A stretch of 59,342 bases of DNA, counting the filler, from Bradymonadales bacterium (GTDB taxonomy: Bacteria > Bdellovibrionota > UBA2394): the NCBI GenBank assembly GCA_007693605.1. It is 6 parts of 6 records of this genome, joined end to end, with 100 filler letters (N's around TTAATTAATTAA, not from the genome) between each part and the next. Parts side by side here need not be neighbours in the genome. Positions count along the whole stretch, not along the records: positions 1 to 17,324 come from REDG01000025.1; 5 more parts are not named here. One strand, given 5' to 3'. Shown in pieces: positions 51 through 38,199 of this stretch. A program made the position numbers and the translations under genes. The first letter of the stretch is position 1, and each line of letters starts with the position of its first letter. The notes under the pieces are model-generated. The model worked only from the letters and a program-made list of their open reading frames with translations, did no database searches and was not told where the DNA came from.

Positions 51-82
51 TGGCTCCCAGGGAGGGATTTGAACCCCCGACA
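51..82 (-). repeat. 32-nt copy of the tRNA-Asn 3' end (T-arm, acceptor strand, CCA)
   Basis: Identical to 10933-10964 of the intact tRNA-Asn. Confidence 0.9.
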
Positions 83-198
83 CATCCGAACGGTGAGCGA
101 GTACGCGAGCGAATGAGGACGCGAGCGGATAGCGAGTGTCTGAGAGTGAGGATGCCTATAGGACCGTCTACACCTGGCATGGTGTACGAAGCTTAAAA
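83..198. repeat. Structured tRNA-linked module homologous to the tRNA-Gly repeat units
   Basis: Shares GGTGAGCGAGT..CGAGCGAATGA, a GAGC..GCG loop and CCYATAGGAYCGTYTAC with the units at 16780-17176. Confidence 0.8.
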
Positions 199-240
199 CT
201 CCCAGGGAGGGATTTGAACCCCCGACAGGGTGGTTAACAG
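199..240 (-). repeat. att site: displaced 3' half of tRNA-Asn (42 bp direct repeat)
   Basis: Identical to 10936-10977; identity stops at the anticodon loop; next to the integrase. Confidence 0.95.
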
Positions 241-342
241 TCTCGTTCCTCTAAATGCACAAACTACTGCTAACTACGGTATGTTACGAAATCGACTGAG
301 GTTTTTCAGTTTAGACTTGCACCACCTACTACTTGGATGCTT

Positions 343-396
343 TGACTTTCGACATGTTGCAGTGACTTTACGGTGACTTTGCGACGATGTGATTTT
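343..396 (+). promoter_or_regulatory. Putative integrase arm-type binding sites
   Basis: GTGACTTT at 362 and 373 (11-bp period) with variants at 343 and 389; the same GGTGACT pair with 11-bp period recurs at 10870 and 10881. Confidence 0.55.
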
Positions 397-411
397 CGAG
401 GTGTTTTTGAG

Positions 412-1587
412 ATGGTGAAGAGATTAACGAAGTCGATCATTGATGCAGCTAAGTACACGGGTGATGGAAGGTCGCCATGTTTCATATGGGACACAGAGAT
501 CGAAAGCTTTGGGGTTCGGGTCTATCCCTCTGGCAAAAAGTCCTTCCTTGTTGACTACTATCACCAGGGTCGCAAGAGGCGTTACACGATAGGAAAGTAC
601 GGCCACATCACTTTGCATCAAGCAAGGGAGCTAGCGAGAGAAAAGCTCTTTTCAGTTCAAAAGGGAATTGATCCTCTTTTCGAGCGAGAACGAGATCGTG
701 GCGCCGAGACAGTTTCAGAATTTTGTCAGATCTACATTGAACGCCACGCAAAACAAAAGAAGAAGTCCTGGCGTAAAGACGAAAGCTATATTCGCAGGTT
801 TGTCCTGCCGAAGTGGGGAAGTCGGAAGCTTAACTCTATCACGGGCAGAGATGTCTCAAACCTGCACATTGAGATTGGTGAACGCTCGCCTATTGCGGCG
901 AATCGATTGCTGCAGCAACTCTCGAAAATGTTCAATTTGGCAAAGCGATGGCAGGTCGTAGACCAAGCATGGCCGAATCCTGCTTCGGGTATCGATAAAT
1001 ATCGCGAAGTAAAGCGAGACCGTTGGCTCGATGAGGGGGAGTTGTCTCGCTTGATGGTGTCTATTCAAGAGGAGCAGAGCCCTTATGTCAAAGCCGCCTT
1101 CATCTTGTACTTACTGACAGGTGTGCGAAAGTCCGAACTTTTGAATGCGCGATGGGATGATGTCAGCTTTAGACGGAAAGAGCTTTGTCTGAGAGAAACT
1201 AAGAATGGCAACTCGCACCATGTGCCGCTCTCTGGCCCAGCCATTGAGATTCTTAAGCAATTGCCACGGGACGCGGAAAACGCTTACATCCTTCCTGGAT
1301 TGAGAGCCGGTCGACCTCTCGTAAACCTTGATAAGGCCTGGTTTAGAGTCAGATCAAGAGCGGGATTGACGGACGTGCGGCTCCATGATTTGAGAAGAAC
1401 CATGGCGTCTTGGATGGTGCAGGGTGGTGCAAGCTTGCATTTAGTTGGATCGCTTCTGAACCATCGTAGTTTAAAGACGACAGAGGTGTACGCGAGGCTT
1501 TCTAACAAGTCGCTCCGGGATGTAGTTGATACCCATGCTGAAAGGATGCTGAAGATGACGAGCCTTCGCATCATTAACGGAGGTTGA
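412..1587 (+). CDS. int: Tyrosine integrase with N-terminal arm-binding domain (P4-like)
   Basis: WD..FGVRV.PSGKKSF arm domain; TGVRKSEL, ETKNG, HDLRRT, LLNH..TTEVY catalytic motifs; ATG 412 after GAGGTG. Confidence 0.95.
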   Translation: MVKRLTKSIIDAAKYTGDGRSPCFIWDTEIESFGVRVYPSGKKSFLVDYYHQGRKRRYTIGKYGHITLHQARELAREKLFSVQKGIDPLFERERDRGAETVSEFCQIYIERHAKQKKKSWRKDESYIRRFVLPKWGSRKLNSITGRDVSNLHIEIGERSPIAANRLLQQLSKMFNLAKRWQVVDQAWPNPASGIDKYREVKRDRWLDEGELSRLMVSIQEEQSPYVKAAFILYLLTGVRKSELLNARWDDVSFRRKELCLRETKNGNSHHVPLSGPAIEILKQLPRDAENAYILPGLRAGRPLVNLDKAWFRVRSRAGLTDVRLHDLRRTMASWMVQGGASLHLVGSLLNHRSLKTTEVYARLSNKSLRDVVDTHAERMLKMTSLRIINGG

Positions 1588-1592
1588 GACTT

Positions 1593-2378
1593 ATGGCAGA
1601 GCAAGGTTATTTTGATTTGCCCACTGATCCTGCAGAATGGAAGGCCAGGGATTTCAAACACTTTTCACAAGCAGACTTGGATCACCTCATAAGAATCCAT
1701 CCAAGTTCTAAAATTTTAAGGCAGATACGTAACACCTTTAAATCTGCGGTAGCTTCAATAAGGAAGGCTGAGCCTGAGAAGGTAATTCTTAAGTGGAATA
1801 TAGCACTCTGTGAGCAAAGGCTACAATCTTTGGGTTTGGACCCTAAGCTTTGGAGGCGCGCTATCAAGGGGGATAGGAAAGAGGGACTGACTGTGACGAT
1901 ACCGACGGAGCTAAAAGAGTTGCTCGGCCGACCTAGTGATAAACTTGAGTTCAACTCTTGGGGGGCCGTCAAGATTGCAGCGCTATCCCATTGCGTTCTG
2001 GAGGGGACACAGAGCCCAGCACTGTACCGGGAGTTGTTCCATTTGACCGAAGTTCTGCCAGAATTCGAGGGCTCACTCAGGGACGAGCTTTCGATGTATG
2101 AGCAGGGGCGGAGGGGCAGGGGCAAGAAGGGCAAGCGACATGCCTCTACAAAGTTTATTCAAGCGTTCAAGTCCAGAGGAATTGGTAAATCCTATGCCAG
2201 TTTTATCGCCTTCTGCCGCTGCGACAATAATGTTGCGAAGCTGGCGGAGCTGATCGGACATCGCGTGGTGTTTATGGAAGAGTTAGACGGCGCAGATGGT
2301 CTTGAATTTGAAATCGATGGGTGTCTCAAAAAAATGAAGCGAAAGACCATCGAGAACCTCCTTTCCAAAAAGTTGTAA
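1593..2378 (+). CDS. Hypothetical island protein
   Basis: Long ORF with GGAGG RBS between integrase and AlpA-like gene. Confidence 0.7.
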   Translation: MAEQGYFDLPTDPAEWKARDFKHFSQADLDHLIRIHPSSKILRQIRNTFKSAVASIRKAEPEKVILKWNIALCEQRLQSLGLDPKLWRRAIKGDRKEGLTVTIPTELKELLGRPSDKLEFNSWGAVKIAALSHCVLEGTQSPALYRELFHLTEVLPEFEGSLRDELSMYEQGRRGRGKKGKRHASTKFIQAFKSRGIGKSYASFIAFCRCDNNVAKLAELIGHRVVFMEELDGADGLEFEIDGCLKKMKRKTIENLLSKKL

Positions 2379-2461
2379 AAAGTTTCTCCCGAAATACCGG
2401 CTTTTAGAAAATTCTCGGATTAGAGTCCTGGGTGAACCGTCATATGACAGGAGGAACTCTA

Positions 2462-2680
2462 ATGAACTTACAGAAATGTGTCTTAACGGAGCGAGAAGCA
2501 GCTGAGTATGTAAGAATGTCTCGCTCATCACTAAGGCAATCAAGACGTGGCGGCAGCCAATGTCGAAAAATATCTTCACCCCCATACATCAAGATTGGGC
2601 GGTCAATCAGATACTTCAAGGCTGATTTGGATCAGTGGTTGCGGCGCCAGAGGGTAGCTCCCTTCGGAAGGGAGGAGTAA
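2462..2680 (+). CDS. AlpA/excisionase-like HTH protein
   Basis: LTEREAAEYVRMS...PPYIKIGRSIRY..ADLDQWL; GGAGGA RBS. Confidence 0.9.
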   Translation: MNLQKCVLTEREAAEYVRMSRSSLRQSRRGGSQCRKISSPPYIKIGRSIRYFKADLDQWLRRQRVAPFGREE

Positions 2681-2916
2681 TGACTCAGAACTCGGATTCA
2701 AGTGGAATTAGTCCGTTGCAACTGTGCAAAGAGAAGGAAGCGGCCAGTCTATTGGGCGTATCCGTAAGAACAATGCAGAGCTGGAGATGTAAGGGGAACG
2801 GTCCTAAGTTTATCAAGATTTCCAATCGGGCGGTTCGTTACCGTCAGGTTGACCTCGTTGACTGGGCCAGTTCAAAACTAGCCGCTTCTACCTCGGAAGG
2901 GGGGCGGCATGACTAG
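2680..2916 (+). CDS. Second AlpA/excisionase-like HTH protein
   Basis: EKEAASLLGVSVRTMQSWR..G.GPKFIKI..RAVRY; TAATG coupling to the upstream gene. Confidence 0.9.
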   Translation: MTQNSDSSGISPLQLCKEKEAASLLGVSVRTMQSWRCKGNGPKFIKISNRAVRYRQVDLVDWASSKLAASTSEGGRHD

Positions 2917-3748
2917 AAATTCTAAAGTTTTGTTTGCCACCAACGCTGGGGCTCTTATCAACGAGGGCTGGCCTGTTTTGCCATTGCATTTCCCTATGGA
3001 TGGGGGCTGTTCATGCCGCAGGTCAAGGTGTTCGAGTATCGGAAAACATCCAATTACTTCACAAGGCTTGCGTGATGCCTCATTAGACGAGCGGGTGATA
3101 CAGGTTTGGAGTGCGGCCTGCCCAGCTGCCAACATCGGTATTGCGGCAGGAGGGCAGTCTGGATTTTTCGTTCTCGACATTGATGAAAAGAGCGGGGGCT
3201 TTGATTCACTACGTGACCTTGAAAGGACCTGGGGGGAACTGCCAGACACAGTTCGTGTCCTTACGGGGGGTGGTGGAGTCCACTACTACTTCGCGTATCC
3301 AAAGAGTGGTTTTGTAAAAACCAGGGTCAGCCTGTGTCCTGGTATAGATGTGAGGTCCGACGGGAGTTATGTTGTGGCTCCTCCAAGCGTCCATGCGAGT
3401 GGGCGTACTTACGAGTGGGAGATCGATCATTCTCCAGATGACATTTATCTCCGGCCTGCACCGGACTGGCTTGTAAGCTTGATAAATGATCATCAGCACT
3501 CCACGTCTATGGCGAGGGATCTAGAGCTGATGAATGTTCTCGGCGAAGGTTCCAGAAACATGACTCTTACGAGGTTGGTTGGGCTCCTCCTCGGAAATGG
3601 GATTCCTAAAGGGCTGGTCTTAAGGCTTACAAAAGCTTTCAACGAAAAGTATGCACGCCCACCATTACCCAACTCTGAAATTGAACAAATCGTGATGAGT
3701 ATTGGCAGGCGAGAAGCTTCAAAGAATCAAAGGAGATTCCATGATTAG
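2909..3748 (+). CDS. Bifunctional DNA primase/polymerase with PriCT domain
   Basis: GWPVLPL, CSC..C..GKHP, ANIGIA, VLDID, TGGGGVHYYF, GIDVR..GSYVVAPPS.H, GEGSRN. Confidence 0.92.
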   Translation: MTRNSKVLFATNAGALINEGWPVLPLHFPMDGGCSCRRSRCSSIGKHPITSQGLRDASLDERVIQVWSAACPAANIGIAAGGQSGFFVLDIDEKSGGFDSLRDLERTWGELPDTVRVLTGGGGVHYYFAYPKSGFVKTRVSLCPGIDVRSDGSYVVAPPSVHASGRTYEWEIDHSPDDIYLRPAPDWLVSLINDHQHSTSMARDLELMNVLGEGSRNMTLTRLVGLLLGNGIPKGLVLRLTKAFNEKYARPPLPNSEIEQIVMSIGRREASKNQRRFHD

Positions 3749-5186
3749 CCAATTTATACCAAGTATTGTGGCGCCTGGCGAGGCTCATTGTGAATTTCCA
3801 ATGGAGGCTTTGGGTAGCAACTTAGCAAGTGTAGCAGGGGTTTTGTCAGACGTGATTCAAGCGCCAACTTCCATGTGTTGCCAGAGCGTATTGGCAGCCA
3901 CATCATTGGCTGTTCAAAATCACGGCGATGTTGAGGTTGATGGTAGGCGATGCCCAATATCAAATTTTTTCATTTCTATCGCTGAGAGTGGTGAGCGGAA
4001 GTCTGCAATCGATTCCGTTGTTCTTGCTCCTCATCGATTGTATGAAGTTGAGCTCTCAAAGAAATATGCACTCCAGCAAAGATCCTATCAGGATCGGCTC
4101 GCTTTATATGAGAGGAAGAGGGGCAGGCTTTTAAACAAGGCAGACCAGGAGGAGATTGACGAGCAGCTGGAAACTTTAATCGGGGCCCATCCAGAGGCCC
4201 CTTTGTTGCCCATTTTCTTGGTTCGTGATCTTACGGTCGAGGGGCTTTACAAGACGATGAAAGATGGTCATCCAGGCTTGGGATTCTTTACCGATGAGGG
4301 GGGAGCATTCGTCGGGGGCTATGGTATGGGGAAGGACCACGAATTAAAGACAATGGCATGTCTTAGCGATACCTGGGATGGGAAGCCAATTGCCAGGGTT
4401 CGGGCCGGTGAGGAGAGCTTGGTGCTGAGGGGGCGTCGAGTGTCTCTCCATATCATGCTTCAGCCCATAGCCTTCAAAAAGTTGCTTTCCAGCGGAATTG
4501 CATCCGGGCAAGGGTTTCTCTCTAGGGCGCTGTGTGTCTATCCACATTCTAGGAAAGGGAGGCGCCGATACGTGGAGACGGACATTTCAAAGGTTCCAAG
4601 CATTATTCGTTTCCAAACCAGAATTGGTGAGCTCTTAAGAATGCAGCCCTCATTGGCGCCGGGTTCAAGAAATGAGCTTAACCCACCAGTTCTGACTCTC
4701 ACGCCGAACGCAAAGAAATTATTCATCGAACAGAGTAATTTCATAGAGGAAAAGCTTGGCAAATCGGGGCCCTATGCATCCATCGACTCCTTCGCAAGTA
4801 AGGCCCCGGAACATGCATTGAGACTGGCAGCGACGATTTGTTTGTACGAAGACGCAGAGACATCACAGATCGATGAGGAGTGTATGACTCGCGGATTTGC
4901 TCTAATAGCATTCTATCTCAACCAATCTTTGAAAGTCGTTGGCGACGCTCATGCTGAGAGACTTAGCGATCTAGCTGTACAATTGGAAGAATGGCTTCTC
5001 CTGAAGGGACTAAAAGAAATTGATTCAAGATTTCTTCAACAATACGCTCCGAATGCTCTTAGAAAGGGTCAGGTTTTGAACATGGTGGTGAAATTGTTGG
5101 AAAGCCAGGGGGTCATGATCCCAATCGCAGGAGGCAAGGTAATCGATGGGGTTCATCGGAGGCAAGTTTGGGAAGTCAGATTGTAA
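3741..5186 (+). CDS. DUF3987/YfjI-family replicative helicase-like protein
   Basis: IAESGERKS P-loop, D.T.EGL, TDEGG, MLQP, GQGFLSR. Confidence 0.85.
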   Translation: MISQFIPSIVAPGEAHCEFPMEALGSNLASVAGVLSDVIQAPTSMCCQSVLAATSLAVQNHGDVEVDGRRCPISNFFISIAESGERKSAIDSVVLAPHRLYEVELSKKYALQQRSYQDRLALYERKRGRLLNKADQEEIDEQLETLIGAHPEAPLLPIFLVRDLTVEGLYKTMKDGHPGLGFFTDEGGAFVGGYGMGKDHELKTMACLSDTWDGKPIARVRAGEESLVLRGRRVSLHIMLQPIAFKKLLSSGIASGQGFLSRALCVYPHSRKGRRRYVETDISKVPSIIRFQTRIGELLRMQPSLAPGSRNELNPPVLTLTPNAKKLFIEQSNFIEEKLGKSGPYASIDSFASKAPEHALRLAATICLYEDAETSQIDEECMTRGFALIAFYLNQSLKVVGDAHAERLSDLAVQLEEWLLLKGLKEIDSRFLQQYAPNALRKGQVLNMVVKLLESQGVMIPIAGGKVIDGVHRRQVWEVRL

Positions 5187-5233
5187 TCCCTATGATCGCT
5201 ACACTTGCTAATCTGCTACAGCCTAGATTTGTC

Positions 5234-5300
5234 ACGGGTCCTTCCTGGCAATGACCGGATGCGGGTGGGGGTGAGTGCGAAGGTTCGTGGTGCGCGCTAA
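5234..5300 (+). other. Lambda-type cos-like region (cosQ GGGTCCT)
   Basis: ACGGGTCCTTCC about 100 bp upstream of a Nu1-like gene. Confidence 0.5.
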
Positions 5301-5343
5301 ATAAATTTGCCCCGTCACTTCGCGGATGGTTTAATCAAGTGAC

Positions 5344-5784
5344 ATGAAAAAATATATGGGGCTTAGAGAGTATGCTCGGCATAGAGGCTGTCATTTGAGC
5401 ACTGTCCAAGAGGCTATTCGATCTGGCCGGATAACAACGGCGTTGCACAAAGGTAAATCAATGCTCGACCCAGCGCTAGCAGACCGACAGTGGAGAAACA
5501 ACACAGATCCAATTGCATCCATGGTCGGTCGGGAAAATGCGCGACAAAGCCGAACTTTTGAAACCAGTACGGTAGGTATTGATGACCTCTATGAGAGTGC
5601 GGTCGGTTACATGGAAGAAATTGATTTGAATGTAATCTTGAGCCCAATATTTCGCCCCCAGGAAGGGCAGGAGAGATTCGTAGACGAGTTTATCTTGAAG
5701 GAGTTGGCCCTGAGTGATGAGTATTTGATTACCCACTCGGACCTCAAAAGCTTGATGGTTAAATTGTTGAAGAAGGCCCTATAG
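5344..5784 (+). CDS. Terminase small subunit (Nu1)-like or Rpp-like protein
   Basis: N-terminus MGLREYARHRG....VQEAIRSGRI...DPALADRQW resembles Nu1-type winged HTH. Confidence 0.65.
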   Translation: MKKYMGLREYARHRGCHLSTVQEAIRSGRITTALHKGKSMLDPALADRQWRNNTDPIASMVGRENARQSRTFETSTVGIDDLYESAVGYMEEIDLNVILSPIFRPQEGQERFVDEFILKELALSDEYLITHSDLKSLMVKLLKKAL

Positions 5785-5818
5785 CGGTCGGCAGTTTTGA
5801 TTTATTCGGATTTGATCG

Positions 5819-6475
5819 CTACACCATTCTTTTAAATATGCGCCTTGCTTTCTTCAGGCCTTCTTTTCGCCCGGGTTGCGGCCAATGATAGCTTGGATGG
5901 TATAGGTATGCTAACTGTTCCACACTGTGTTCATCCTTATTTTTGTCGAGGAATTCAAAAGCTTCTTTTCCCAGTGCGATGATGACTTTTGGCTCTATAA
6001 GTTGAATCTCACTCGATAGGAATCTTTCATAACATGTATGTTTGGTAATTGGATGCAGTTGCTTCGTTTTATCTTTCGTCGAGCATTTCACAAGGTTTGT
6101 AAAAGCCACTTTCCGTACGATTTCGGTGTCGGTTAGGTTAAGTATGGACCTCAAGTAGTTCATAAGACGAGTATGAAAGGTTAACCCTCGCGTGTTAGCG
6201 AGAAAATTTTTACGCAGGAGGGCCTCCTCATAAAACCTTGCACTGAGCTTGCTCATTGGCTCGTTTCTCGACGACCGATAAAACTCATGCTCCTCATCTA
6301 TAGGGTGCCCAGGATTTTTTCCGACAACCAGAACCTTGGCTTGTCCGGTTCGCGACCCGTTTAAAAAGCCCCGGGGTCGTTCCAATCTTGATTTGCGGGT
6401 TCCAGGGCATCGGGCGCATGGCAATCGGCAGCCCGAGACCGCACCGTACAACTTATCTAACTTAGCTCGTCGCAT
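5819..6475 (-). CDS. Uracil-DNA glycosylase superfamily protein (family 4/5-like)
   Basis: VLVVGKNPG, FTNLVKC, EIQLIEPKVIIALG, LYHPS; N-terminal Cys cluster; start uncertain (6475 or 6514). Confidence 0.8.
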   Translation of the reverse strand: MRRAKLDKLYGAVSGCRLPCARCPGTRKSRLERPRGFLNGSRTGQAKVLVVGKNPGHPIDEEHEFYRSSRNEPMSKLSARFYEEALLRKNFLANTRGLTFHTRLMNYLRSILNLTDTEIVRKVAFTNLVKCSTKDKTKQLHPITKHTCYERFLSSEIQLIEPKVIIALGKEAFEFLDKNKDEHSVEQLAYLYHPSYHWPQPGRKEGLKKARRIFKRMV

Positions 6476-6530
6476 AATCCAGTTTACGTACGTAAATTCA
6501 TGATTGTAAACCACCAGCTAACATCCTGAT

Positions 6531-6749
6531 ATGACTAGGGGTTCGGACGACCCACTGGCTGAGATGCGTCAGCAAGTGAAGGACTTAATATCGCAGCGCT
6601 ATCGCACAGTTGAGGAATTTTGCTGGGCAAATGATCTTAGTAAAGCGACAGTCTCTAACTTTCTTGCGGGAAGGAAGGACTTTCAGGTGAGTACACTTCA
6701 GAAAGTTGCCAATGGGCTGAAAAAGAAGCTTCACATCTCTCTGAGGTGA
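6531..6749 (+). CDS. XRE-family HTH regulator
   Basis: LSKATVSNFLAGRKDFQVSTLQKVANGL. Confidence 0.85.
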   Translation: MTRGSDDPLAEMRQQVKDLISQRYRTVEEFCWANDLSKATVSNFLAGRKDFQVSTLQKVANGLKKKLHISLR

Positions 6750-6949
6750 GTATTGTGGGTTCTTGCAATACAAGCTTCTGCATCATGGGAGGTTGATAGT
6801 AAGATGAGCTAATGGGGCCGGGACCCATAAACTTTCTTTGCAATTGATGCTCATGGAGCCCCGGCTAGTGTTTCGGGCAACCGTACGCTTGAGGTTGGTG
6901 CTCAGTGATTTGAAATTGAACGAGCAATATTACGAGAGGAGATAATGAG

Positions 6950-7255
6950 ATGTTGCCCATGAGATATGAAAAGATAATTAGACGCGTGTTCAACTGTGAT
7001 CGGCTCGGTGATCCGGCAAGAATTGCAAACACTGATACCTATTCGGACTCCGATTTAGACATGGTAAAGGCTGGTCTGGCCTACGCTAATGCTCATGCAA
7101 TTTGTCGAGCTTACAAGGCGGGCAGAGACAGTCTTGCTGGGAATCTGGAGAAATTATTTGAAACGATTTGGGGGGCTGAGACAACCGCTGATCTAGATTC
7201 AGTTGTTGAGAAAATCTATAGCAGTCAGGCTGAGATGTTGATTTCAGAGGACTGA
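6950..7255 (+). CDS. Hypothetical protein
   Basis: ORF preceded by GAGGAG. Confidence 0.6.
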   Translation: MLPMRYEKIIRRVFNCDRLGDPARIANTDTYSDSDLDMVKAGLAYANAHAICRAYKAGRDSLAGNLEKLFETIWGAETTADLDSVVEKIYSSQAEMLISED

Positions 7256-7299
7256 TCGAGCAGGGTGGCGGACCCGAACAAATGTTGATCTTTCGTGCC

Positions 7300-7569
7300 T
7301 CAACCAAATGGAACAACAGTGTCTATTTGGCCTGTCTTCTGAGCGCTGCGGCGCCGATTTTTGCTGAGAACAGCGAGGCATTCGGCTCTTCGCAAACCGT
7401 TTATCTCATCTTGTGATACTGTAAAGGAAACCGACACGCCAGCATCTAGGCGGGGATAGTCAGCCCTATTCATTACATCTTGCCAGGAAAAAAAGTATGG
7501 CCGACCGCACTGATCGGTTATCTCACCATATCCCTTGTCTCGGTTGTACCATTTCACTATCGCTACCAT
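7300..7569 (-). CDS. Cold-shock domain protein (divergent)
   Basis: VKWYN.DKGYG.I RNP1-like motif, YFFSW, L..G..VSF. Confidence 0.75.
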   Translation of the reverse strand: MVAIVKWYNRDKGYGEITDQCGRPYFFSWQDVMNRADYPRLDAGVSVSFTVSQDEINGLRRAECLAVLSKNRRRSAQKTGQIDTVVPFG

Positions 7570-7683
7570 AGTTTCATGGTAACTCAATGGTTGCAGCGAT
7601 GCTCAGCATCAAGATCATTTAGCATTTGCCTTCGACGCTCCGCTCTCCCTTATCCTGAAGGCAGGCTTTCGCCACGGAGTTTT

Positions 7684-10605
7684 ATGATTATCAGGGATGC
7701 TAATGCTAATTTATTTATTGTCTTTGGTGGACTATTCAGTCGGAAAGTAATCGAAGGGCATCTACGAGAGCATACCTTTAAGGGGACTGCTCGTGCAGAT
7801 ACACGCAGTGCGTTGGGTGCGTTTTACTCCTTCATGTCCAGCGGAACTGGCGTTTCAGAAAGAAGCCGTCTTCAACCAAAAATTTTAGAGTTAGTGTCGA
7901 CTATTTCGGCCTGGAAGGATGTTGAGCGAACGGGTACGACCGGCGACTTGCTTTGTCTGAATAAGGGGAAGCAATTGCTAATTGAAGTGAAGGTTCAAAC
8001 AAGCGATCGTCTCGACGAAGCAAAGGGTTCTGGCGTCCCTTACGCTGAAGATCAGTTGATACGAGACTTGAACAGACGGAAAATACCATGGGGAATACTA
8101 ACAAATGGTTGGAGTTGGCGGTTCTACAATAAGGATATGCCAGAGCAGACCATTGAGTTTTGCCTTGCAGATATTGCTAGAAGTACAATCAGCCAGCCTG
8201 AATTGGATCTGTTTTGTGCAATGTTAGAAGACCCAGAGGTTCTGGCGAGACTACATAAGGAATCGGCCGAGGCAAAAACTAGATCAACAGAACTTCTTAG
8301 TAAGAATCTTAGAAATTGTTACCTGAGTCTATTGGGTGCGTCCTGGGAGAGAGAGGTTGCCGTCCGATTCTTGCTCCGACTATGCGCCCAACGATTTTTA
8401 GAAGACTGCGGAATCTTGAACGTTCTCGATAGAGGGTATCAGGATAGGCGACTAGACGTGCCTGATAATTTTGACCATGAGGCGAATATCGTTTCTTGGT
8501 TGTGTAAAGTTTGGAAAGAGATCGGTCGGGGCCGATGGACAATTCCCACCGAGAAAGCCGGTGACTTGCTTCCGATTTCGGAAGACTTTTTCACGAATGA
8601 AGAACAAAGGTTGTTGAAAAAACAGCCAGAGATAAAAGACCTCTCTTCCTTACTTCGTGAGACATTTGTTGCCGCTGGTGGCCCCATAGATTGTTCCGAT
8701 TTGAATATTGAATTCTTTGGCTCATTTTATCAGTTGGTTGAAGACCCGACTCAAAAGAACGACTCAGGGAGATACTTTACGAATTTGGAGTTGGCCAGAA
8801 GACTGTCTGTATACTTGTCGGAGAGATTTGCAAGGCGAGATACCCTCAGAGAGGGCGAGTACATTCTCGACCCGGCCTGTGGAAGTGGTCAGTTGCTGAG
8901 GTTGTTGATACCCTATGCGATGAACTTTGTTTCGTATGATGACTCAGCGCCAACAAAGTTGGAGCATTGGCGAAGGTTTTCACAACATCTCGCTGGCCTT
9001 GACATTGACGAGAACTGCGTCTGGATCGCAAAGGTTAGTCTTTGGCTTGCTACTGCTGCCAAGGGAAGACCATTTGTTCGTGTTAATGTAAGGAAGAATG
9101 ATGTCATCAGCTCTTGTATTGGGAAGAGTCGAGATGTTTATGGTGAGGCTTTAGGTTTTTCTCATACCGAGGCAGTCGTTGCTATAATTACAAACCCGCC
9201 CTGGGAGGAGCTGAGGATTCAGTTCCCTCAATATTACAAAAAGGCGACCGGGAAGACTACGCCAAAGCAGAGGGATGACAAGGCATGGCAAGAGTACATG
9301 AAATTCAAAGCTCGTCATCAAGGCGCGTTTGACAAGTTAGTGGATCACCAGTCAAAAATGAATCTAAAGATCAGACAGTGCTTTGGGATTAGCGGCATTC
9401 CAAATCTTGCAGAGGTTTTTTTGATAATCTGTCGCGATCTTTTAATCTCAATGGCTGAGACCACCGAACGAAGCCAGCTACCCTACGCCATTATTCTGCC
9501 AGACCAATTTTTTCTTGGTACGAGGATGGCCGAACTAAGAAAAAAGATCCTATGCGAGGTCGATTGCTATATTCCCTTCGCGAGAAACATTGATCCAAAT
9601 ACGGGCAAAAGATATTTTCATGGAGTTGACCCTAATCGGCGGTTCGGAATTATTCTAGGTAAGGTAAACCAGTCGAGATCTATCACCAACATAAGTGCTC
9701 GGCCCCTACACGGGATGGAGATTAAAGTGCCTCTTGATAAGCTCGGTCTCTTGCCCTTGCATAATCATCCAATCGAGCTAACTTGCCTTCAGCAGCTTGT
9801 GTCCCTCAGGAGCGATGAGGTTGAAGCGCTTTGGAATGTTGGAGAATGGGATGCCACAGCATGGAATCGAGGTTCGCGAAAGATAGTATCAGAGAGGTCA
9901 CCTCAGGCGATGGCTTTAATCAAAGCAGAGGGATTGGGGCTTGGCAGCGGGCACGAGTTGTCCTTTAGAAAGAAGGAGAACGTGCTTTGGTGGGTGCATT
10001 CAAAGGAGCCAAAAGATGTCAGTGTTGCAAGGTCGGGGCGGCTTATAATTGGAGACACAAAACGTAACGCTGGAAAAATAGTTCGCGCTGGATATGTGTT
10101 TGGCAGCAATCACAGAATCGCTGGAGTTGCTCGGCCTCTCAATGGAGTTGCACTGCAAAACACGCTGTTGTACGCACAAATTAGCTCAGACTGGTTGCCT
10201 TATTTTCAGTCACTATTTTTTGAGTTTGCAATGAGGAGTATCGCAGGAGCTCAACACTTGAATGCTTGGCGATTAAATTTATTGGGTATTCCAAGAATGC
10301 CAGAGGGGTTCCTTAAAAGATTGCAGAAATCGAGTTTTGCAGAGCAGCAAAGGTTGCTTGCAGAGGAACTTAAATTCACTCCTTCAGAGTTTTTGACTGT
10401 TGTTAAAGCTGCAAAACCACTGCTCCAGAGTGGCAACTGGGTCGAGCTCTTGGTTCAGGCCAAGAAGATGGCCGACAACGACACTCTTAAGCGGGAAATT
10501 TCAGAGCTGCTCGAATTGGAGAAGAAGGTTCAAGAATTGGAAAAAAAGGCAGCGAAGAAAAAGAGTCGTACGAAGGCTACACGTTTACAAGAAGCTTCAG
10601 GTTGA
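7684..10605 (+). CDS. Type IIG-like fused restriction endonuclease / N6-adenine methyltransferase
   Basis: GD..(IEVK) PD-(D/E)xK nuclease, WGILTNG..WRFY, GRYFT, ILDPACGSG, IITNPPW; start uncertain. Confidence 0.85.
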   Translation: MIIRDANANLFIVFGGLFSRKVIEGHLREHTFKGTARADTRSALGAFYSFMSSGTGVSERSRLQPKILELVSTISAWKDVERTGTTGDLLCLNKGKQLLIEVKVQTSDRLDEAKGSGVPYAEDQLIRDLNRRKIPWGILTNGWSWRFYNKDMPEQTIEFCLADIARSTISQPELDLFCAMLEDPEVLARLHKESAEAKTRSTELLSKNLRNCYLSLLGASWEREVAVRFLLRLCAQRFLEDCGILNVLDRGYQDRRLDVPDNFDHEANIVSWLCKVWKEIGRGRWTIPTEKAGDLLPISEDFFTNEEQRLLKKQPEIKDLSSLLRETFVAAGGPIDCSDLNIEFFGSFYQLVEDPTQKNDSGRYFTNLELARRLSVYLSERFARRDTLREGEYILDPACGSGQLLRLLIPYAMNFVSYDDSAPTKLEHWRRFSQHLAGLDIDENCVWIAKVSLWLATAAKGRPFVRVNVRKNDVISSCIGKSRDVYGEALGFSHTEAVVAIITNPPWEELRIQFPQYYKKATGKTTPKQRDDKAWQEYMKFKARHQGAFDKLVDHQSKMNLKIRQCFGISGIPNLAEVFLIICRDLLISMAETTERSQLPYAIILPDQFFLGTRMAELRKKILCEVDCYIPFARNIDPNTGKRYFHGVDPNRRFGIILGKVNQSRSITNISARPLHGMEIKVPLDKLGLLPLHNHPIELTCLQQLVSLRSDEVEALWNVGEWDATAWNRGSRKIVSERSPQAMALIKAEGLGLGSGHELSFRKKENVLWWVHSKEPKDVSVARSGRLIIGDTKRNAGKIVRAGYVFGSNHRIAGVARPLNGVALQNTLLYAQISSDWLPYFQSLFFEFAMRSIAGAQHLNAWRLNLLGIPRMPEGFLKRLQKSSFAEQQRLLAEELKFTPSEFLTVVKAAKPLLQSGNWVELLVQAKKMADNDTLKREISELLELEKKVQELEKKAAKKKSRTKATRLQEASG

Positions 10606-10798
10606 GGAGCTTGGCTTTTCTAAAGGTAATATTTGATTTAATCGCAGACTTTAGTTTAGTGATCCGAGCGATAGCTAGATCAAGTTCGTCGGCACTAAGC
10701 TCCTGGTCCAGAGAATGCTCTATTGCCATGAGCTCCTCACGAATCGTATTTATCACGATTGCACTTCTTTTTTCTTCGTTAGCAGCCAGCATGAGCAC
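10577..10798 (-). CDS. Small helical hypothetical protein
   Basis: 73-aa ORF converging on and overlapping the end of the RM gene. Confidence 0.45.
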   Translation of the reverse strand: MLMLAANEEKRSAIVINTIREELMAIEHSLDQELSADELDLAIARITKLKSAIKSNITFRKAKLLNLKLLVNV

Positions 10799-10932
10799 TC
10801 ATAAGTAGCTAGGACCGGCACTGTCTGACAAGGCGTTAATTTTATCGCAGGGAACGATCAAGGGTTGACGGTGACTTATTGGTGACTCAGGATCTGCTCG
10901 AATTGCCAATTCCGGCTGTAATCGCCTTAAAA

Positions 10933-11007
10933 TGGCTCCCAGGGAGGGATTTGAACCCCCGACAGGGTGGTTAACAGCCACCTGCTCTACCCCTGAGCTA
11001 CCTGGGA
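10933..11007 (-). tRNA. tRNA-Asn (GTT)
   Basis: 75-nt cloverleaf TCCCAGG...CTGTTAA...CCTGGGAGCCA. Confidence 0.97.
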
Positions 11008-11140
11008 ATGATGTTTACCAACTTGCTCCTACACTACTGAAGCTCAGGGGTAGAGCAAACTGGTTTTTTTTCTGCGCCTTTGGGGCGCAAGCCCTGAGCC
11101 GAAGTCTGAATATGCCGAATGCCCCTTAGCCTGCCAAGAA

Positions 11141-11734
11141 CTATGCCCCCTTTTCCTTCTTCAGCTCCAGTAAGACCAGTTTTGCGATGGCTTTTAGGGT
11201 CTCAAAAACCCCCTCGCCAGTGACGGCGGTGGCCTCAAAATCGGGGACCTTGTTCGGATTGAGCAGGTTTCTTAAGTCCTCCACGCTGCTCACATTCGGA
11301 AGATCTCTCTTATTGTACTGAATCACAAAGGGCAGCTTCTCAAGCTCATAACCCTGCTCTTGAAGGTTGACCTTCAAATTCTCTAAGCTCTCTAAATTGG
11401 CGTCGAGTCGATCTTTTTGCGAATCGGCTACAAAAACCACTCCGTCGACTCCCTTCAAAATAAGCTTTCGACTGGCATCATAAAAAACCTGACCTGGCAC
11501 CGTATACAAATGAAATCGGGTTTTGAAGCCTCGAATCTCTCCTAAGGCCAGCGGAAGAAAGTCAAAGAACAAAGTTCTTTCGGTTTCAGTCGCCAAGGAG
11601 ATCATCTTGCCCTTCGCTTTGGGAGCGGTTTTTTTATAAACAAACTGAAGGTTGGTTGTTTTACCGCACAGACCGGGGCCGTAATACACAATCTTGCAGT
11701 TGATCTCCCGATTCGAATAATTGATAAATGCCAT
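11141..11734 (-). CDS. mglA: Small Ras-like GTPase MglA
   Basis: [39 protein letters not shown]. Confidence 0.97.
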
Positions 11735-16747: not shown

Positions 16748-17176
16748 TGGAGCGGGAGAAGGGGATCGAACCCTCGACCCCAATTTATGGTGAGCGAGTC
16801 TTTCGAGCGAATGAAGCTCCGAGCAGAGCGCAGGAGCTGAAAATAAATTGGCCCATAGGATCGTCTACGATTAGCTTTTTGGGTGGAGTGTGGAGCGGGA
16901 GAAGGGGATCGAACCCTCGACCCAGCTTTGCGGTGAGCGAGTCTTTCGAGCGAGCGACAAGGCGAGCAGAGCGCAGCCTTGGAGAGCAAAGATGCCCATA
17001 GGATCGTTTACGATTAGCTTTTTGGGTGGAGTGTGGAGCGGGAGAAGGGGATCGAACCCTCGACCCAGCTTTGCGGTGAGCGAGTCTTTCGAGCGAGCGA
17101 CAAGGCGAGCAGAGCGCAGCCTTGGAGAGCAAAGATGCCCATAGGATCGTTTACGATTAGCTTTTTGGGTGGAGTG
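16748..17176 (-). repeat. Three 143-bp tandem units, each ending in the tRNA-Gly 3' 32 nt
   Basis: TGGAGCGGGAGAAGGGGATCGAACCCTCGACC at 16748, 16891, 17034 and 17177. Confidence 0.95.
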
Positions 17177-17251
17177 TGGAGCGGGAGAAGGGGATCGAAC
17201 CCTCGACCTTCTGCTTGGCAAGCAGACGCTCTACCACTGAGCTACTCCCGC
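17177..17251 (-). tRNA. tRNA-Gly (GCC)
   Basis: 75-nt cloverleaf GCGGGAG...TTGCCAA...CTCCCGCTCCA. Confidence 0.97.
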
Positions 17252-38041: not shown

Positions 38042-38199
38042 TCTTCACTTCGTGTGCCTCTGGCACAACAGCTGAGCTACGGTCGCATCCTTAAAACCTA
38101 CTTCAACACTTCCATCGCTCAGCTGGATAGAGCTTGCGCTCTCCTCTTCACTTCGTGTGCCTCTGGCACAACAGCTGAGCTACGGTCGCATCCTTAAAA
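38042..38199 (-). repeat. 103-bp-period repeat carrying tRNA-Arg-like 5' fragments and an inverted D-arm
   Basis: 55-bp repeat at 38042 and 38145 contains GCGACCGTAGCTCAGCTG (minus); GCTCAGCTGGATAGAGC on plus at 38117-38133. Confidence 0.8.

Follow-up and report, generated by a model that had tools for sequence, protein, structure and literature searches.

The nearest relatives in print of the sequences described here are the tRNA-linked repeats (TLRs) of E. coli, including rtT of tyrT. According to the available portion of PMC8144298, TLRs are gene-less, occur in one to five copies in tRNA operons and have a function stated there as unknown; each contains 18-19 bp identical to the end of the adjacent tRNA, and they lie downstream and copy its 3' end or that of an upstream rRNA. 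The module described here also consists of gene-less repeated units carrying a copy of a tRNA end. Unlike a TLR, its D-type form lies upstream, copies the 5' end and adds an antisense arm and a mimic of the tRNA; an antisense arm goes unmentioned in the same portion of PMC8144298. The unit at tRNA-Asn and the other D-type units have no 3'-end copy, whereas units of a second type, at T-loops, do copy the 3' end. The Rfam RtT model matches neither the window at its gathering score nor any of 8 unit loci at E<=1.

REP/REPIN sequences with RAYT (TnpA-REP), as outlined in part in the available text of 10.1101/2024.07.17.603846 and PMC11893778, resemble the module in being ~100-bp, non-autonomous, palindromic DNA with single-strand hairpins and an enzyme encoded elsewhere. 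As generally described, REPs are fixed sequences at many scattered intergenic sites and flank their own transposase, whereas the module occupies tRNA loops only and has arms rewritten to the target. The palindromic hairpin with a single-strand DNA loop signature is common to both; dispersal over extragenic sites was not seen (47 of 66 inspected model matches lie before tRNAs, the model being biased to D-arm sequence), and the RAYT gene of the genome studied here is flanked by an unrelated repeat rather than by units. Ssn single-strand nucleases with their NTS/SRM hairpin repeats share hairpin repeats that act as single-stranded DNA, but tRNA is unmentioned in the main text of PMC11893778. SRM repeats flank a small GIY-YIG gene; the units do not, and the 14 family genomes contain no small GIY-YIG (all open frames at least 217 aa). 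Integron attC would offer a further likeness, since an inverted copy folds back and rebuilds the recombination site in single-stranded DNA (available text of PMC5737381). For the module a fold is predicted, and its core hairpin covaries. Folding is also a property of the attP of CTX phage, a single-strand site at which tandem integration regenerates the target. Both are fixed sites served by known tyrosine recombinases, whereas the module has a different site at each tRNA and no associated recombinase.

Islands and prophages that integrate in tRNA genes restore the gene through an att direct repeat of the tRNA end. Copies of nt 1-18 restore the gene in the module too, with a junction near G18. 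Islands bring an integrase and cargo and use the 3' end, whereas the module has neither, uses the 5' end and the D-loop, and adds the antisense arm. T-box leaders (Rfam RF00230) pair with the anticodon and the NCCA end of a tRNA; the module resembles them as a tRNA-pairing leader, but its partner is its own D-arm, and it shows no specifier loop, T-box bulge or terminator/antiterminator. No Rfam family at all matches the window or 8 unit loci. TLRs are the nearest system in print, and REP/REPIN, Ssn repeats and folded attachment sites are functional analogues, each parting from the module in a defining feature. The literature searched (mostly abstracts, with few subscription papers) held no description of the module, which is real, widespread and, as far as searched, undescribed.

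The window is a stretch of 59,342 nucleotides from the assembly of a Bradymonadales bacterium (genome G000), composed of contigs joined by N runs. It contains an intact tRNA-Asn(GTT) on the minus strand (10933-11007, D-arm 10983-10999), the sole Asn gene called by ARAGORN in the assembly. The original prediction described an antisense copy of the D-arm within the leader of this gene, and all the parts it named are present on the minus strand. The antisense box (11041-11057) is a perfect 17-nt complement of tRNA nt 9-25, matching 10983-10999 at 17 of 17 positions. Matches of this length are not expected by chance: when 3000 random 150-nt windows were drawn from the genome, 2999 had no antisense match to tRNA-Asn longer than 13 nt, and the 32-nt match in the remaining one is presumably to tRNA-Asn or a fragment of it. 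A spacer of 33 nt (11008-11040) separates the box from the tRNA. On the 5' side of the box stand an A-rich linker (11058-11072, with a CCAGTT end common to the Asn unit of G010 and the Val unit of G001), the core hairpin H1 (11073-11089, predicted to form 6 bp) and an upstream decoy (11092-11099), which by sequence comparison is a remnant of a duplicated tRNA 5' end (D-stem start, nt 10-17). H1 has a 5-nt loop here, unlike the GAA/AAA triloop of most family units. It was held not to be a terminator, and none is called over it. The anatomy first proposed was right about the upstream decoy and hairpin but overlooked a second, downstream decoy (11017-11028, minus strand) in the spacer, which pairs with 11053-11064, masking the 5' half of the box, in a pairing kept in G010. 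With its end copy reduced to nt 10-17 and its mimic placed downstream, the Asn unit is an eroded member of its kind.

Upstream, outside the element, is a host gene for a small GTPase (11141-11734, minus strand), which we take to be MglA-like and which follows recR. Between the two, a sigma-70-like promoter matches the consensus at 9 of 12 positions with a 17-nt spacer (11137-11109, minus strand; one found against 0.4 expected in shuffles) and would place the transcription start near 11102, just 5' of the decoy. One public contig spans 10980-11899 with no listed difference, and its source run may underlie the assembly.

Folding predictions support two exclusive partners for the box. In the leader alone the decoy pairs with it (-26.6 kcal/mol, z -2.1); when the D-arm is included, the box moves to the real D-arm (z -4.1). 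For the leader and tRNA together a misfold at -74.8 kcal/mol is favoured by about 13 over the cloverleaf fold at -62.0, a comparison on paper that ignores modification and folding during transcription. Such folds bring in the explanation of a host RNA device in the pre-tRNA leader, in which a box masked by decoys would let the tRNA fold and RNase P cut, and a released box would misfold its own tRNA and so tune output. The promoter-like consensus match just 5' of the Asn unit fits this, as do the clear -35/-10 pairs read by eye before the first copy at other loci. Leader-tRNA pairing of at least 10 bp appears in the lowest-energy fold of 37 of 47 units, with a median gain of 7.2 kcal/mol, and masking is preserved by varied means, either an upstream mimic or a downstream decoy. 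The units also last at orthologous tRNAs across genera, and one lies within an rRNA operon, between 16S rRNA and tRNA-Ile.

The architecture proved to be present at other tRNAs, so the absence elsewhere that the original prediction had named as its own counter-evidence did not materialise. An exact antisense match of 14-20 nt to the own D-arm lies within 60 nt upstream of 7 of the 32 tRNA calls of G000 (Pro, Arg-ACG, Ile, Phe, Asn, Leu-CAG and Arg-TCT). Leu(GAG), Ala(TGC) and Arg(TCG) have degenerate or split versions, and about 10 tRNA genes are occupied in this genome. A full unit consists, in order, of a copy of tRNA nt 1 to about 18, the hairpin, the A-rich linker, a D-stem mimic of nt 21-27, a short loop, the antisense box and a spacer, followed by the intact tRNA. 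Asn retains only a remnant of the end copy, which is complete at other tRNAs of G000. Upstream tandem arrays number five; their 2.0-3.3 copies are 96-99% identical and repeat every 95-139 bp. The second site reported earlier, 38042-38199 on the minus strand, is real and is better described as the severed end of such an array, specific for tRNA-Arg(TCG), with a period of 103 and cut by the contig end; it holds nt 1-18 copies at 38172-38189 and 38069-38086 and an antisense box at 38117-38133 (all minus strand). The matching tRNA-Arg(TCG) would be the one at the start of another contig, a join we infer; relatives carry a unit at an Arg(TCG) gene adjoining the same IMPDH-family gene as in G000. 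The TGYGCC/GGCRCA hairpin singled out at first is present, but is one variant only of a broader core. A further stretch (C24:2406-2700, L053) holds a tRNA-Leu(TAG)-specific unit followed by an apparent decayed tRNA. An integrase fragment adjoins the intact Leu(TAG) gene, which is located on a different contig.

These observations point to the antisense copy being a member of a widespread gene-less module in tRNA gene ends rather than an Asn-only switch. In the module the hairpin and the A-rich linker form a portable core, while the end copy, the mimic of nt 21-27 and the antisense box are matched to the local tRNA.

Within the family, occupancy is patchy. Twenty tRNA-Asn loci were compared, and only G000 and G010 have a unit; it is missing from 11 other family genomes and from 7 more distant ones. 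In the G010 orthologue one H1 pair is altered on both sides. This orthologous unit with changed sequence, together with units in many genomes, excludes an assembly artefact. A covariance model built from 15 units and run on family genomes only gave matches in 13 of 14 at E<=7e-6. The 66 matches outside G000 that were inspected, being the top of the list, comprise 47 directly before a tRNA, 6 at contig ends with a partial or unreadable tRNA, 11 weak ones on tRNA reverse strands and 2 weak ones with no tRNA. No solo core away from tRNAs occurs among the strong matches in this inspected set; the pattern scans and the model derive from the D-arm consensus and favour tRNA-linked matches and positions 10-15. 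Each genome has its own set of occupied genes; G011 has 13, whereas none was found in G008, and about 20 tRNA types are represented in all. The same tRNA (Asp, His, Pro-GGG or Arg-TCG) bears a unit in several genera, as would also be expected of ancient units inherited and retained by the host, and for several orthologous tRNAs the number of genera is four or five. CTGAGC, the complement of the D-stem start, lies 10-11 nt before tRNA-Asn at three family loci with no unit (L003, L012, L016) and is either a remnant or a separate leader feature. Upstream of a tRNA-Arg(CCG) (L107), a sequence of ~190 bp is inserted in the core-hairpin loop of a unit.

Beyond the family the module recurs in at least six lineages. 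A pattern scan of genome contigs yielded at least 120 matches, among which 66 were unit-like by a loose rule and 20 unclassified; 34 were divergent tRNA pairs and were discarded as false. A stricter parse, from which one more such pair (L084) was likewise dropped, gave 62 distinct units, including those of G000. By title, unit-bearing records come from Gastranaerophilales, Saccharibacteria, Peribacteria, Clostridia, Flavobacteriales and Bdellovibrionota-type MAGs. Metagenomes gave 57 matches, of which 36, counting duplicates, are complete units that precede a called tRNA; this set and the 62 overlap in a few loci, are rich in Gastranaerophilales and are neither additive nor independent. A strict exact-match pattern found units in 7 of 251 phylum genomes, a bad undercount by comparison with the model search. 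Viral contigs held no unit: 13 matches were chance or tRNA overlaps and 3 further ones had no tRNA, so a phage or satellite attP was rejected as the source.

The end copy defines a precise junction. In all 42 scorable units (5 were skipped) the copy stops within 3 nt of G18, in 15 exactly there: near G18, within the D-loop, the module interrupts a tRNA copy. It is oriented into the gene and closes with a new copy of the tRNA end that it displaced, which leaves the gene intact. The antisense box follows its tRNA, scoring best or joint best against its own among 32 D-arms in 39 of 47 units. An enzyme-free scar could in principle produce such an arrangement. A small palindrome in the D-loop would give rise to a tandem inverted duplication through template switching by the polymerase; of the outcomes, those that fail to restore the tRNA would be lost, and quasi-palindrome correction would keep the arms matched. 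Template-switch correction of quasi-palindromes is an established process. Forward copy, inverted copy and forward gene is the order of an inversion duplication, and the inverted part of the Ala(TGC) unit extends back to nt 1. The failure to find an enzyme, set out below, also speaks for a scar. Against it, the same geometry, with a period of ~90-110 nt and the junction near G18, is found in distant lineages, and a non-tRNA core is common to about 20 tRNA types. The spacer carries TGA[AC]A in 25 of 62 units (shuffles: mean 6.9, maximum 14), and strong matches include no solo core off tRNAs. We regard the scar as improbable.

Core sequences group by genome. Similarity averages 0.519 within a genome across tRNAs (152 pairs), 0.467 for the same tRNA across genera (59 pairs) and 0.459 otherwise (1112 pairs); the within-genome excess was reached in 0 of 500 permutations and the same-tRNA excess in 137 of 500. 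This grouping would fit spread among the tRNA genes of a genome with the tRNA-specific parts rewritten. Base composition or a lineage-specific binding protein could also produce it, and the nearest core neighbour of 39 of 53 units is in neither the same genome nor the same tRNA type. No excised or empty allele was seen in one low-depth DNA run.

The loops of the core hairpin are of a DNA type. Among the 62 units a C[GNA]G triloop occurs on the tRNA-sense strand in 29 and on the opposite strand in 1 (shuffles: mean 0.7, maximum 4), and 12 against 1 remain among 40 non-redundant units. Of 53 family hairpins, 41 have a triloop, which is C[GNA]G in 20 and C[AAA]G in 9; UNCG occurs in none of the 53. 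AAA triloops are stable in DNA. GCGNAGC mini-hairpins are exceptionally stable in DNA and their RNA counterparts considerably weaker, according to the available text of PMC13037366. Because the loops are GNA or AAA triloops with no UNCG, the core hairpin is taken to act as DNA. The hairpin itself is conserved as a structure: across eight Gastranaerophilales Arg orthologues three H1 pairs are altered on both sides and 98% of cells are paired, with a loop of only GAA or GGA. Wobble-pair counts are too low to distinguish the strands.

An inverted version of the module provides a further test of strand. Four family tRNAs (Ser and Cys of G005, Trp of G007, Cys of G010) are followed by a mirror unit, which contains an antisense T-arm and repeats the tRNA 3' end; similar mirror units occur in Gastranaerophilales. 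Of 47 D-type units, 34 show the family core loop on the sense strand and 3 on the template strand, whereas the only 4 T-loop units seen in the family all show it on the template strand (one of them has a sense-strand loop too). Surveys of T-loops found 2 of 253 tRNAs under a strict rule and 8 of 320, one probably by chance, under a looser one; the family T-loop pattern matched controls too, and candidates were vetted individually.

Since T-loop units have the core hairpin on the template strand, an RNA leader switch is an unlikely fit, and this inversion is the strongest sign for DNA over RNA. The prevalence of triloops and the absence of UNCG count against the host RNA device as well, as do the 11 of 13 family tRNA-Asn loci with no unit, the range from 0 to at least 13 units per genome, the variable copy number and a unit (L322) with a decayed decoy yet a perfect antisense box. 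The cis control of pre-tRNA folding that the original prediction put forward keeps some ground: the unit is probably transcribed, its box is usually masked and, on paper, it can invade the tRNA. It is possible and ranks second, after the footprint of an element that targets D-arms, the other reading offered there, which is supported and is the best explanation. A host RNA device as such we judge unlikely, and it may have arisen from the DNA element by domestication.

We propose, as the probable explanation, that the module is a non-autonomous single-stranded-DNA element of ~90-140 bp that inserts in a tRNA loop and rebuilds the gene. When a strand is exposed, at a replication fork or by transcription, the antisense box would fix the site by pairing with the tRNA arm that the same strand carries. 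A putative enzyme encoded elsewhere would recognise the hairpin and cut and join at the loop. The tRNA-specific parts would be re-copied from the target, either by fold-back synthesis at insertion or by later template-switch correction of the inverted repeat, and tandem arrays may arise by re-insertion or by slippage between direct repeats. The switch seen at first would correspond to the masked state of the box, which may also let the pre-tRNA fold; a masked fold would be needed by the host in any case. A bolder version is a target-programmable, DNA-guided insertion system in which a putative single-strand enzyme binds the constant hairpin and the arm is rewritten for each target, so that the 11-20 nt antisense arm in the same DNA would choose any target by base pairing. 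We advance this tentatively and think it doubtful at present. If true, bridge-RNA recombinases would have in it their counterpart at the DNA level, and TLR-like repeats at both ends of tRNA genes in many phyla would be accounted for.

The search for an enzyme gave no candidate, within assemblies that are incomplete and broken at repeats, which limits these negatives. All-versus-all comparison of 524 ORFs around 148 loci returned no family common to more than three tRNA types. A neighbouring enzyme was rejected, the 66 flanking ORFs examined, of 81 listed, being ordinary or unassigned; flanking ORFs include no integrase in or beside unit repeats, and none of the 57 metagenome matches is a gene-bearing copy of the unit. 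Known enzyme classes do not track the unit: a Y1 transposase is found in 2 of 5 other unit-bearing genomes, Xer-like tyrosine recombinases are present in 5 of 5 genomes checked and so uninformative, and GIY-YIG fares no better. Reverse transcriptase, in just 1 of 5 unit-bearing genomes tested and absent from G000, also fails to track it, which weighs against an RNA guide. There, an excised leader RNA would act in trans via the antisense box, either priming reverse transcription and retro-insertion at a tRNA gene or guiding a modifying or protecting protein to G18-G19 of the D-loop. The best-kept stretch of the box, nt 15-25 (35-40 of 47 units), does span G18-G19, and the unit is probably transcribed; but the DNA-type loops do not suit an RNA, and T-loop units would require antisense transcription. 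This explanation we consider very unlikely.

Small GIY-YIG genes do occur in tRNA genes with hairpin inserts in Patescibacteria, at 9 of 44 loci (15 of the 44 were not relocated), and the nine tRNA-adjacent loci have no antisense match longer than 10 nt. At L226, L237, L417, L419 and L420 the hairpin replaces the loop of a duplicated tRNA part, and in L419, where the D-arm is the point of insertion, the 5' end has been rebuilt. This cassette of a related kind in Patescibacteria tRNA genes is real.

Other repeats and cargo also gather at tRNA genes. Behind the tRNA-Asn gene's 3' end lies an integrative island (51-10900) with a tyrosine integrase (373-1587), which belongs to that island, a primase-polymerase, DUF3987, a uracil-DNA-glycosylase-like gene and a 1041-aa methylase-containing gene; a structured element lies between two 3' fragments of tRNA-Asn, at 51-82 and 199-240. 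Behind tRNA-Gly(GCC), 3.2 copies of a 143-bp unit (16748-17208) each contain a whole T-arm and a GCGAG-rich element, and no antisense arm; in G010 a related element follows a copy of nt 1-14 and lies inverted upstream of a tRNA-Gly. Elsewhere in G000 (L051:730-3900, L052:1100-5855, L067:1200-2700), fragments of tRNA arms enclose cargo: HipA and an HTH partner precede Leu(CAG); IS110, DarT and a macro domain lie behind His, between T-loop-type units; and Fic-MerR lies behind Cys. A RAYT-type Y1 transposase (C78:26339-27164, L076) is flanked by inverted copies of the unrelated repeat, which has ~30 copies in the genome, several adjoining tRNA genes; other 150-bp repeat families reach at least 60 copies. 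In G010 the RAYT-flanking repeat of that genome lies directly before three different tRNA-Pro genes (L037, L039, L044).

For practical purposes, arrays of units break assemblies at tRNA genes, as at Arg-TCG in G000, and are easily mistaken for pseudo-tRNAs or att sites. If the RNA reading is true, the module represents a new way of controlling tRNA maturation. If the DNA reading is true, long-unexplained tRNA-linked repeats become testable as products of one process, and the enzyme behind the module would be a candidate programmable single-strand integrase. As far as our searches reach, no described family rewrites its target-recognising part in this manner; on the DNA reading, many bacterial lineages would host a minimal element in which that part is rewritten for each tRNA arm.
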